Shown: piece after piece, positions 6,692-9,620 of the stretch
How the letters are laid out: every line of letters starts with the position of its first letter
Numbering within the stretch: position 1 is the first letter of the stretch
NCBI GenBank assembly: GCA_900549365.1
Contig: UROD01000001.1
Span: 1-47,778, forward strand
Direction: 5' to 3'
Source: an uncultured Rickettsiales bacterium
GTDB taxonomy: Bacteria; Pseudomonadota; Alphaproteobacteria; Rs-D84
Length of the DNA stretch: 47,778 nt
Notes under the pieces: generated by a model
Told to the model about the DNA's origin: nothing
The model's input: the letters and a program-made list of their open reading frames with translations, nothing else
Databases searched by the model: none
Program-made: the position numbers and the translations under genes

Positions 6692-7072
6692 ATGAGATTT
6701 ATATACCTGATTTTAATAGCAACTGTCGCAGCATGCGCATCGCCAAATCGTGGCAATATTGACAACGCAACTGTTTTGAATTGGGAAAATGAATCCGTCA
6801 CGATGGAACAATTCGTCCGCGATCACAAGGCGTGTCTGGGCGTGACCAAGCCATCGTATATGCCACGCAGCCGTATTTCCAAATTATTGGCCCCAAATCA
6901 GAGTGGCCAAATGCCCGACTGGGACGGACTGTGGGTAACATTCCAATCCAATGAATACAAGGACACCAGCCAACGTTCGCTGTTGTCTGTGCCACGCAAC
7001 ACAACATCTAAAACCGTCGGTGCATATCGCAAATGTATGTTTAGACGCGGTTATTTATTGCGCGCCAGTTAA
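6692..7072 (+). CDS. Hypothetical lipoprotein
   Basis: Signal peptide with lipobox (LILIATVAACAS). A TATAAT-like box lies upstream. Confidence 0.5.
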   Translation: MRFIYLILIATVAACASPNRGNIDNATVLNWENESVTMEQFVRDHKACLGVTKPSYMPRSRISKLLAPNQSGQMPDWDGLWVTFQSNEYKDTSQRSLLSVPRNTTSKTVGAYRKCMFRRGYLLRAS

Positions 7073-7130
7073 TTTTTATTTTTAAGTCCCGCGCTTTCAA
7101 AACCCGCCTTTTTGTGATATAATTGCCGAT

Positions 7131-7811
7131 ATGAAACGGACAATTTGGTTTTGGGTTTATTTTATTGTTGCCATTGTTTTGGCGACCTACTTTTCTGTGC
7201 GTGTGATTATGACTGGTATGGGCCACGGCGACTTGTCGCGCGTGCGCAGTATTTCTATATCGGCCGACATCGCTGACAAGGATATGTCCGCATTGGCGGC
7301 GGCGGCGGCCGTTGCACCTGGGACATCAGCATTGACGGTCAATTTGAACCAGTTAAATCATCGTATTGGCGCGGTTGCAGGTGTACGTTCGTCTGCGGTG
7401 CGGCGTTTGCCAAATGGTAATTTGGTTGTGCGCGTAAAATTATACCGCGCGGTTGCGCTGTGGACTGATGGTATGAATTATTTCCCATTGTCCGCCGACG
7501 GCACAATTGTCAACCAACCCAGCGCAGATCGCAAACCTGGCACGGTTTTATTTCGTGGTACATTACCAAACGACATCAGCGAAATTACAACCGTCGCACA
7601 TAACCTGATTGGTGATTTGAATTATATGGAATGGATTGAAAATCGCCGCTGGGATTTGGTTACAACTGGTGGCATCACGGTAATGTTACCCGAAAAATCA
7701 CCAGATGCCGCGATTGCACAACTGATTGTTTTGAACAAAAACCATCATATTTTTGATAGAAATATCAGCGTGATAGATATGCGTGACGACGCACGAATAT
7801 TGGTAAAATAA
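7131..7811 (+). CDS. ftsQ: Cell division protein FtsQ
   Basis: N-terminal TM helix followed by POTRA/FtsQ-like segments (RRWDLVTTGGITVMLPE). It sits directly upstream of the ftsA-like gene. Confidence 0.7.
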   Translation: MKRTIWFWVYFIVAIVLATYFSVRVIMTGMGHGDLSRVRSISISADIADKDMSALAAAAAVAPGTSALTVNLNQLNHRIGAVAGVRSSAVRRLPNGNLVVRVKLYRAVALWTDGMNYFPLSADGTIVNQPSADRKPGTVLFRGTLPNDISEITTVAHNLIGDLNYMEWIENRRWDLVTTGGITVMLPEKSPDAAIAQLIVLNKNHHIFDRNISVIDMRDDARILVK

Positions 7812-7817
7812 GAAATT

Positions 7818-9593
7818 ATGAACCTGTTTGATTCGGCTTTTTTATGTCTGGATGTTGGCACGTCGGGTGTACGTGGTATGGGACATCGCGTGCGTGGTGG
7901 TCGCTTGGACAAATCCGCAATATTCAGCGTGGACAGTTTTGACACAGTTTTTGCAATAAATTCTGTTATTGCAGAATTGGAACGTATGGTCGGCGCACGA
8001 TTTGACAGCGCATATGTCACTGGTAATTTTGGCGCGTCTGGTTTTGATATGTCCGCAAAAAGCACAAAATGGAACGGCGAACACAAAATCACTGCATCAG
8101 ATGTTCGCGCACAGATTGAACAAATTTGTATTCCTGATGGTTATTTTCCAATGCATATTATACCGCTGCGATACGATACACCAACGGCGCGCAATATGGT
8201 ATCACCCGTTGGTTACACTGATCGCCAGTTAATATCAGCATTCGGCACAATTATGTATCAACGTGACGCATTTGAACGCGTGTCTGCGAAACTGCGCCAT
8301 GCACATATCTTGGCAAATGGTTTCTATGACCCACAATGGTTGCTGAACGCCACCCTGCGCCAGAAAAAACAGACCGTTATGTTTATTGATTTGGGCGCAG
8401 AATTTACATCTGCATCTATCTGGACGGATCGTGGGCCGGTATGGCATACCAAGATTCCATTGGGTGGTACACCAATATCATATGACATATCAGAAAAACT
8501 GCATATCGGATTTGATGATGCCGAACGCATCAAACGTGCGGTCGCATGTTTATATCCAAAAGAAATGGACCGGTTCACCCCCGCCGATACAGCATATGAA
8601 TTTTCACGTGGCGATATAAATGATATATTTTTACCGCATATGGTTGAAATCGTGGAACAAATCGCAACGGCATCAAATGGCGCAATTGCAAAATATCACC
8701 CAACTAAAATCATTCTGACTGGCGGCGGCGCAATGACCGACGGCGCAACAGAATTTATTGAAAACGCATTTTCTATACCAACCGAAAACATCGGTGCCGA
8801 TGCATCGGTACGCGCTCTGTCCGCATTTATCTGGAATGCAGAGGCCGCACATCGTGGCGCATATTTGGCACGACACGACCGATGGGCACGACGCTGGGCG
8901 CGCATTACAAAAATATTTCATCGCCCACAAAAACGCCGCACACAATTTATTCCAATTATGCCCAGCACCCTGTGCTTTAATATGCGCAAGCAATCAACGT
9001 ATTCAATGTTTCGTGCTGGCGGTATATCGATGATACATGTCGATATTATGGACGGATTTTACGTTGATCGTGTTGCCGGCGGAATACCAGAGTTAAAACT
9101 AATTCGCGCCCATACCGACGCACACCTGCACGTGCACCTGATGACCGAGAGTCCATCTGTCTGGGCGGCGGACGCTGTTGCAGCTGGTGCAAATACTGTA
9201 ATTATGTCAACAAACACATCTGGCCTGCGTGCGGCGGTACGTGGTGTACGCGCCGCCGGCGTACGTGCGGGCGTTGCAATAAACCCAGAAACATCGGTCG
9301 ACATCTTGAAACCAATCTTGCGCGATTTGGACGAAGTTATGATTATGACTGTGCGCCCTGGGGCGGCGGGGCAAGAGTTCCAAGCCGATTGTCTGAAAAA
9401 AATTGAAATCTTGGCGGCAACGCGTCGCCGCTATGGCCTGAAATTCAAAATATCTGTTGATGGTGGTATAAATGACCAGACGGCGCAAATGTGCTGGGCC
9501 GCTGGCGCAGATTTGTTGGTCAGTGGCTCATATCTGGCACGCAGTCCTGATTTCCCATTGGCGGTTCAAAGTTTACTGAAAAAACAAATATAA
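7818..9593 (+). CDS. ftsA: FtsA-like actin-fold protein fused in frame to a ribulose-phosphate 3-epimerase (Rpe)-like domain
   Basis: Residues 1-370 carry FtsA motifs: LDVGTSGV, FIDLGAEFTSASI, IPLGGTPISYDI, AERIKR, ILTGGGA. Residues from about 377 to 591 (8946-9593) align by eye to Rpe: IMPS.L, HVDIMDG.YV, HVHLM, INPET, MTVRPGAAGQEF, SVDGGI, AGADLLVSGS. There is no stop codon between the two parts. Confidence 0.65.
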   Translation: MNLFDSAFLCLDVGTSGVRGMGHRVRGGRLDKSAIFSVDSFDTVFAINSVIAELERMVGARFDSAYVTGNFGASGFDMSAKSTKWNGEHKITASDVRAQIEQICIPDGYFPMHIIPLRYDTPTARNMVSPVGYTDRQLISAFGTIMYQRDAFERVSAKLRHAHILANGFYDPQWLLNATLRQKKQTVMFIDLGAEFTSASIWTDRGPVWHTKIPLGGTPISYDISEKLHIGFDDAERIKRAVACLYPKEMDRFTPADTAYEFSRGDINDIFLPHMVEIVEQIATASNGAIAKYHPTKIILTGGGAMTDGATEFIENAFSIPTENIGADASVRALSAFIWNAEAAHRGAYLARHDRWARRWARITKIFHRPQKRRTQFIPIMPSTLCFNMRKQSTYSMFRAGGISMIHVDIMDGFYVDRVAGGIPELKLIRAHTDAHLHVHLMTESPSVWAADAVAAGANTVIMSTNTSGLRAAVRGVRAAGVRAGVAINPETSVDILKPILRDLDEVMIMTVRPGAAGQEFQADCLKKIEILAATRRRYGLKFKISVDGGINDQTAQMCWAAGADLLVSGSYLARSPDFPLAVQSLLKKQI

Positions 9594-9620
9594 AAAACGG
9601 GGCATACGCCCCGTTTTTTG
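9592..9620 (+). terminator. Rho-independent terminator (bidirectional shape)
   Basis: AAAAAA-CGGGGC-ATAC-GCCCCG-TTTTTT, immediately after the stop at 9591-9593. Confidence 0.8.

Follow-up and report, generated by a model that had tools for sequence, protein, structure and literature searches.

Nearly all that is understood of FtsA concerns its role in tethering the division protein FtsZ to the membrane and in regulating it. Ribulose-phosphate 3-epimerase (Rpe), an enzyme of the pentose-phosphate pathway, crystallises as dimers or hexamers when it stands alone. Here we describe a gene that joins the two in one reading frame. It lies in a 47,778-nucleotide (nt) stretch of DNA, hereafter called the window (positions 1 to 47,778 of contig UROD01000001.1, GenBank assembly GCA_900549365.1), from an uncultured Rickettsiales bacterium of the order and family Rs-D84. 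The gene, which we call ftsA::rpe, is one open reading frame (ORF) of 591 amino acids (aa) plus stop at 7818..9593 on the + strand. The overall reading that we consider likely is an ancient stop-loss fusion, whose product is a membrane-tethered bifunctional protein that takes part in an FtsZ-independent divisome.

The closest described system for the N-terminal half is canonical FtsA, known from E. coli, Vibrio maritimus, Thermotoga maritima and S. aureus (PDB 7Q6D, 7Q6F, 7Q6G, 1E4G, 4A2A and 3WQT). The fusion shares its actin-like fold and nucleotide motifs, likewise has an amphipathic helix after the core, and is likewise encoded right after ftsQ. It differs in that this helix lies within the protein, ahead of an enzyme domain of 212 aa, and in that no FtsZ partner was detected in the genome. 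Relative to FtsA from the sister families of the order, the fusion has a shorter N-terminal hairpin and a 2B region that is 10 aa shorter. For the C-terminal half the reference is stand-alone Rpe (2FLI), which has the same TIM barrel; here the fusion differs by its N-terminal FtsA, its predicted membrane tethering and a PGAAGQ loop.

Precedents also exist for life without FtsZ and for gene fusion as such. Chlamydia and Wolbachia supergroup J are likewise reduced peptidoglycan-makers without FtsZ, and keep FtsK, FtsQ, FtsW, penicillin-binding proteins (PBPs), MreB and RodA/PBP2. Their genes have been tabulated among those of obligate intracellular bacteria (PMC10591338), and ftsA and ftsZ both stand at 0% in these two groups (PMC10591338, Table 2). 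Because ftsA is lost wherever ftsZ is lost in that table, the retention of FtsA without FtsZ is unusual. Chlamydia and Wolbachia supergroup J thus have no ftsA, whereas the Rs-D84 family, which consists of gut-associated Alphaproteobacteria, keeps a selected FtsA fused to Rpe. Rosetta stone fusions of neighbouring genes in compact genomes likewise appear to merge adjacent, co-oriented genes by stop loss and to leave both parts intact. The present case differs from them in that no functional connection is known between the partners, a membrane helix forms the junction, the fusion is fixed in at least 8 genera and the linker length is near-invariant. Among the papers searched, none pairs FtsA, ribulose-phosphate 3-epimerase and fusion, and none links Rs-D84 with FtsZ or its loss. 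Enterousia, a member of this group, has been placed in the uncultured order Rs-D84, family Rs-D84, with genomes below or near 1 Mb; MreB/RodA/MrdA are reported for it, and FtsZ, FtsA and cell division are unmentioned (PMC12306168).

The initial annotation of the window, made from the sequence alone, had proposed a single uninterrupted 591-aa frame combining FtsA-like and Rpe sequence. This was borne out: the frame contains no internal stop, and every motif it quoted is located where it had been placed, with RWARRWARITKIF at residues 355-367, M381 at the ATG of position 8958, HVDIMDG at 407-413, HVHLM at 438-442, RPGAAGQ at 513-519 and SVDGGI at 546-551. The frame as a whole is supported by Pfam, by NCBIfam and by comparison with relatives. 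It comprises four segments on the + strand. The FtsA-like actin-fold domain (residues 1-342, 7818..8843) was assigned from AlphaFold2, Foldseek and conserved motifs. It is followed by a basic amphipathic helix (residues 343-367, 8844..8918), which is the predicted internal homologue of the FtsA C-terminal membrane-targeting helix, and by a short basic disordered linker (residues 368-379, 8919..8954). The Rpe TIM barrel (residues 380-591, 8955..9590) was assigned from PF00834, NF004076 and 2FLI.

AlphaFold2, run on a 31-sequence alignment, returned two confident folds joined via a low-confidence linker, with a mean per-residue confidence (pLDDT) of 92.4 and a predicted template modelling score (pTM) of 0.61. 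The pLDDT is mostly >90 over residues 1-342, a long helix occupies residues 343-367, values fall to <50 at 368-374, and the barrel begins at residue 380.

We performed searches with the FtsA half against sequence models and known structures. Pfam FtsA (PF14450) matched residues 189-322 with 43 bits (cut-off 31.8). The NCBIfam ftsA model TIGR01174 was colinear, residues 30-335 aligning on model positions 38-354, and scored 82.6 bits, under its equivalog cut-off of 175.85. In a Foldseek search against the PDB the 19 best matches were all FtsA, with target-normalised template modelling (TM) scores of 0.65-0.76, and a PDB sequence search with residues 1-374 returned FtsA as the only matches; identity to the solved FtsA structures is 15-17%. 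The nucleotide motifs are conserved across a 90-sequence alignment of the family, including D12 (88/90), G14 (89/90), D191 (87/90) and G193 (88/90), as is the adenosine motif, with G302 in 90/90 and G303 and G304 in 88/90 each. The phosphate 2 motif reads DLGAEFT, not DxGGGT, and sister-family FtsA diverge there equally.

The two halves have not diverged to the same extent. Against sister FtsA the fused FtsA half scores 41-67 bits, compared with 106-189 bits for the sister families among themselves; the corresponding values for the Rpe half are 89-124 and 94-162 bits. Judged by these scores, divergence along the family stem was greater for the FtsA half than for the Rpe half, a pattern that fits a remodelled yet still selected FtsA. 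Such accelerated divergence, the score under the ftsA cut-off and the weak PilM and MreB Pfam matches to the N-terminal half would also suit a protein that no longer serves division, namely a PilM-like pilus part or a regulatory ASKHA domain on Rpe, left after collapse of the Z-ring. We regard this as very unlikely. The NCBIfam pilM model scores 23.6 bits compared with 82.6 for ftsA, the best structural matches are to FtsA throughout, and the ftsQ-ftsA synteny is common to sister families with canonical FtsA. Selection has preserved the membrane helix, the genomes still encode FtsK, FtsW and PBPs, and one genus has a class-B PBP gene upstream of the locus.

That membrane helix had been recognised in the initial annotation as resembling the FtsA membrane-targeting helix, and the predicted structure, the hydrophobic moment and the alignment with sister FtsA all agree with it. 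The highest helical hydrophobic moment of the whole protein, 0.83, is found at residues 356-369, and for residues 338-392, within which helix and linker fall, the net charge has a family median of +11. The helix region reads RWARRWARITKIFHR in the window, and in one relative (L104) the helix reads RWVQIKNWFEKHL, nearly the sequence seen in sister family f5. FtsA proteins from the sister families end in short amphipathic helices (…KVKKWIDDNF, …LHRWIKEYL, …VKNWIKEHL, …IRKFINDNF), which align with fusion residues ~355-369. On this alignment the internal helix 343-367 is probably homologous to the FtsA C-terminal membrane-targeting helix, and membrane binding is predicted. The linker that follows is rich in K/R and predicted to be disordered, and its residues are similar to the basic extension with which the stand-alone Rpe of family f2 begins (MFKKRKQKIQISPS). 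Its length is near-invariant in the family, and the 90-sequence alignment is almost gap-free there too.

The Rpe half was identified with higher scores. Pfam Ribul_P_3_epim (PF00834) covers residues 382-573 with 149 bits (cut-off 21.1), and the NCBIfam rpe model NF004076 gives 173.9 bits, over its cut-off of 165; the TIGR01163 equivalog gives 156 bits, under its cut-off of 212.6. Rpe structures rank next after the FtsA chains in the Foldseek search. The Streptococcus pyogenes enzyme 2FLI matches the Rpe half with 137 bits and superposes on it with a TM score of 0.93 and a root mean square deviation of 1.3 Å at 36% identity. H407, D409, H440 and D548 align with identical 2FLI residues (HxD, H, D), which we take to be its catalytic and metal ligands, and the Met cushions are also present. 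Across the 90 family sequences H440 is invariant, H407, D409 and D548 each occur in 89, and the DGG and SGS loops are conserved. The first phosphate loop reads PGAAGQ, not PGFGGQ. This departure from the usual loop, pointed out in the initial annotation as RPGAAGQ, is real, but it is not a sign of decay: A516 (84/90) and A517 (82/90) are the norm in the family, and the loops of stand-alone sister Rpe vary too (GFSGQ, GASGQ, GAGGQ, GFGGQ). No second Rpe was found in the genome, so that the fused copy is the only one. Because the catalytic residues are conserved and this Rpe is the sole one in the genome, the Rpe half would be the working, sole epimerase for the non-oxidative pentose-phosphate pathway. 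This pathway is reported in most Rs-D84 genomes (PMC12306168).

Comparison of orthologous loci, in metagenome-assembled genomes (MAGs) of uncultured organisms, revealed that the fusion is widespread. The query matches 804 database proteins; each of the best 120 spans the full length (588-596 aa), shows 65-100% identity and has both Pfam domains. At least 292 loci in species-representative genomes encode the fusion, one of them in a closed circular long-read genome of 958,618 bp. Every one of the 92 sampled family genomes, from 8 genera, has the full-length fusion as a single open frame of 564-643 aa spanning residues 1-590, at identities down to 28%; three family frames flagged with stops prove to be intact ORFs, the stops not being internal. 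In the 90-sequence alignment the commonest residue of a column has a mean frequency of 0.70 in FtsA, 0.60 in the linker and 0.81 in Rpe. Pairwise ratios of non-synonymous to synonymous substitution (dN/dS) are 0.06-0.08 for FtsA, 0.06-0.18 for residues 343-379 and 0.01-0.03 for Rpe, values that point to purifying selection on all three segments.

The initial annotation had named a sequencing artefact and a decaying gene boundary as alternatives to a true fusion, and an assembly error or a pseudogene belongs with them. The source assembly is indeed fragmented (811.5 kb in 88 contigs, 89.8% complete), and nothing else was found in favour of this explanation. It is contradicted by the occurrence of the identical protein on 14 contigs, by the presence of the fusion in 292 or more species genomes assembled independently of one another, the closed long-read one included, and by dN/dS values of 0.01-0.18 in every segment, and we give it practically no weight. 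By the genome comparison, the fusion is genuine, ancient and fixed in family Rs-D84, that is, in Candidatus Enterousia and at least 7 sister genera. Its carriers are Candidatus Enterousia and uncultured Alphaproteobacteria/Rickettsiales of human and animal guts. Among the best 150 matches from 1.84 billion representative proteins, about 20 are full-length fusion clusters, all of them close relatives, and nearly all the others are stand-alone Rpe of ordinary length, plus fragments of the fusion family; the same architecture was not found outside the clade among these 150.

One member of the family departs from the common pattern. The fusion gene of genome G101 (genus g16; L102/L119, G101:C1:79533-81296) is fast-evolving and retains an intact 589-aa frame. 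The Rpe residues H, D and D and the GGQ loop are replaced, as are the phosphate-1, phosphate-2 and GGG motifs of FtsA. Its Rpe score is 92.6 bits, versus 156-160 bits in its four normal congeners.

A single membrane-tethered product, predicted from the conserved frame and helix, is the likely outcome of such a gene. The same ORF could also give two proteins, Rpe being freed by internal initiation or by proteolysis within linker 368-379, in which case the fusion would be only genetic. The linker is predicted to be disordered and is K/R-rich, and the ATG at 8958 is present in this species. The initial annotation saw no independent start for Rpe and argued from the missing Shine-Dalgarno (SD) motif. 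That argument is weak alone: SD-like motifs precede only ~34% of long ORFs in the genome, the start of the fusion itself has none, and initiation is therefore not excluded by the lack of one. The conclusion itself is upheld by the relatives, in which M381 is Leu in 50/90 and an in-frame start codon together with an SD-like motif occurs within the linker in only 7/90. Moreover, the junction frame is kept in every genome down to 28% identity, which separate translation would not need. We consider two separate products to be quite unlikely.

The sister families indicate how the fusion arose. The arrangement with separate ftsA and rpe genes was found in other families of the order only, and the fusion is confined to family Rs-D84. 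In f2, f5 and f6 the order is ftsQ-ftsA-rpe, encoding an FtsA of 409-426 aa and an Rpe of 195-235 aa; ftsA and rpe either adjoin directly or share 1-17 nt at their junction. In f3 a gene of 593-600 aa of unknown function lies between ftsA and rpe (L100, L101; G040:C2, G026:C3). In all family genomes inspected, ftsQ immediately precedes the fusion, just as it lies upstream of ftsA in the sister families. The ancestral arrangement at the level of the order is thus ftsQ-ftsA-rpe with abutting or overlapping ftsA stop and rpe start. Since the sister genes abut and sister FtsA ends in a helix, the comparison supports an origin by loss of the ftsA stop, which joined a complete FtsA, including its C-terminal helix, to a complete Rpe, deleted nothing and left the helix internal. 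Excision of ftsZ from between ftsA and rpe was considered as another origin and ruled out, because sister ftsA and rpe are adjacent and sister ftsZ is 20-50 kb away or on another contig. In base composition, the family without FtsZ has a much higher G+C content than its sisters: the own genome has 45.8% and the window 43.2%, versus 26.5-33.8% in the sampled sister-family loci (L082-L100).

The absence of ftsZ from the position after ftsA had been noted in the initial annotation as a departure from the normal order. The gene is indeed not there, as the fusion is followed by a terminator and then by convergent tsaE. The observation understated the situation, FtsZ being undetectable genome-wide in the family. 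The expectation behind it does not apply in order Rs-D84, where ftsZ is not adjacent to ftsA even where it is present. The NCBIfam model TIGR00065 had no match in the own genome, and a hidden Markov model built from four sister FtsZ and run unfiltered against all six frames of that genome gave noise only. TIGR00065 detected FtsZ in 0/25 genomes of the genus (the own genome and 24 others, many 94-97% complete) and in 14/16 sister-family genomes. Pfam Tubulin at E ≤ 0.1 matched in 0/13 genomes that represent 8 genera of the family, among them the closed genome of 958,618 bp and a MAG that is 100% complete. FtsZ was undetected in 298/299 family genomes. The sole match, in genome G270 (L127, G270:C168:1562-2236), is a truncated piece of 226 aa, located at one end of a small contig of which 2.2 kb was retrieved; the bin that holds this contig has 190 contigs and 7% contamination. 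The fragment is ~51-53% identical to three sister FtsZ and 41% identical to a fourth, and it is probably a foreign contaminant.

The C-terminal tail of FtsZ was sought separately. When eight sister tails, drawn from each of the five sister families, were run with phmmer against the own genome translated in six frames, no match was obtained, and a regular expression for the [DE]IP[AS]F-type FtsZ peptide gave nothing credible there. A 50-position profile of the tail module returned a single noise match of 13 bits from 14 family genomes, the own genome included; this profile recovered the positive controls G038 and G025 and missed the FtsZ of f5 and f6, which limits its sensitivity to a divergent tail.

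Some further observations concern ftsZ in the order. In f3 (L083, G039:C11) ftsZ lies between phage-like terminase and portal genes, in a cluster that is possibly gene-transfer-agent-like. In the own genome (C15:1-5300) the corresponding terminase and portal genes enclose three genes that are unrelated and lie on the opposite strand; these three encode proteins of 566 aa, 335 aa (a helix-turn-helix protein) and 226 aa. In f4 (L136, G027:C18:45800-48200) a degenerate 408-aa FtsZ-like protein scores 31 bits to TIGR00065 and has no Pfam Tubulin match; with the fusion as query, that genome yielded neither FtsA nor Rpe. FtsZ may have eroded more than once in order Rs-D84.

The family retains a late divisome and an elongasome, RodA/PBP2 included, in an inventory similar to that of Chlamydia. 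Each genome encodes two SEDS proteins, one of which adjoins a PBP2-type transpeptidase; the other is FtsW-like, has TIGR02614 as its best model (239 bits) and is encoded between mraY and murG. There are 4-5 PBPs, MreB is present in 10/11 genomes tested and FtsK in 11/11. In genus g17 (L104:876-2528, G134:C8) a 550-aa class-B PBP (PenA/FtsI/SpoVD-like) is encoded directly upstream of ftsQ-ftsA::rpe, with which it forms a mini division operon. A candidate second FtsA-like gene, a 427-436-aa MreB-like match, was rejected as an Hsp70/YegD-type chaperone; the 427-aa example at L124:957-2240 (G041:C3) is Hsp70-like and of YegD type, with 258.6 bits to NF008673, under the cut-off of 331. The same chaperone accounts for the weak MreB-like matches at frames of 418-448 aa in several genomes.

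Together, these observations suggest how the fusion protein might work. Its product would be one ~66-kDa polypeptide combining an FtsA-like actin-fold ATPase with an active Rpe barrel. The internal basic amphipathic helix would hold both domains at the inner face of the membrane, a flexible linker of ~12 residues separating helix and barrel. The FtsA half would still serve septal peptidoglycan synthesis, together with FtsQ, FtsK, FtsW and a PBP and without FtsZ. MreB, which directs division in Chlamydia, would probably also act in septation here. The Rpe half would be the working epimerase of the cell.

Several points weigh against this account. With a score under the ftsA cut-off and no more than ~20-25% identity to sister FtsA, the FtsA half may have changed in function. 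The absence of FtsZ rests on homology searches, by which a very divergent substitute would be missed. Cleavage in the linker or internal initiation is compatible with the sequence. Finally, fusion and FtsZ loss both fall on one stem branch, which is a single event and not a replicated correlation.

The last point bears on a more specific role for the epimerase. The Rpe barrel might self-associate and so cluster or align membrane-bound FtsA, possibly as filaments, supplying the scaffolding otherwise given by the Z-ring; this would explain the fixation of the fusion. Because the linker length is fixed and no re-split gene occurs in the 92 sampled genomes, the data suggest that the physical link may not just be tolerated. 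At the family level the fusion and the loss of FtsZ have exactly the same distribution, evolution on the stem was faster for the FtsA half than for the Rpe half, and G101 keeps its 589-aa frame without the Rpe H, D, D and GGQ loop and without the FtsA ATP motifs. Against these observations, the co-occurrence is again one event, and the strong selection on the Rpe active site (89/90, dN/dS 0.01-0.03) is fully explained by an enzymatic role. The degenerate case is one fast-evolving genome, with four congeners of normal Rpe score, and the pTM of 0.61 and low-confidence linker would suggest no fixed orientation of the domains. A scaffolding role is therefore unlikely in our estimate. If it were true, it would define a new kind of FtsZ-independent divisome and might physically couple septal wall synthesis to pentose-phosphate metabolism.

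In the preferred reading of a membrane-tethered bifunctional protein, an enzyme of central metabolism would be tethered to the membrane and joined to a divisome protein. The ~300 species-level genomes that keep FtsA, FtsQ, FtsK, FtsW and PBPs without detectable FtsZ make FtsZ-independent functions of FtsA addressable. One public database record names the fusion merely 'ribulose-phosphate 3-epimerase'; a division gene is thus hidden beneath an epimerase name, and the missing ftsZ could be mistaken for MAG incompleteness.

The genes around the fusion complete the picture of the locus. The ftsQ-like gene (7131..7811, + strand) encodes 226 aa with an N-terminal transmembrane helix and an FtsQ/DivIB C-terminal domain (Pfam PF03799, 39 bits), and it ends 6 nt before the start of the fusion ORF. 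Ahead of it, at 7096..7123 on the + strand, is a sigma-70-like promoter match (TTCAAA-16-TATAAT with a TG extension); this is a consensus match only, and such matches are no more numerous in the region than in shuffled sequence. At 9592-9619 a GC-rich hairpin between A and T runs forms a predicted bidirectional intrinsic terminator, acting on both strands, which closes ftsQ-ftsA::rpe and the convergent tsaE. Elsewhere in the window lie putative type IVb pilus-like genes, which would favour the reading of the N-terminal half as a pilus part. Upstream of ftsQ, at 6692-7072, lies a small lipoprotein-like ORF of 126 aa with the lipobox …AACAS. An ORF whose C-terminus resembles that of this protein (…KSVGAYRKCMFRKGYLLRAA) occurs near ftsQ in L110, with a 316-aa ORF between them, and this lipoprotein-like neighbour of ftsQ is at least partly conserved in the family.

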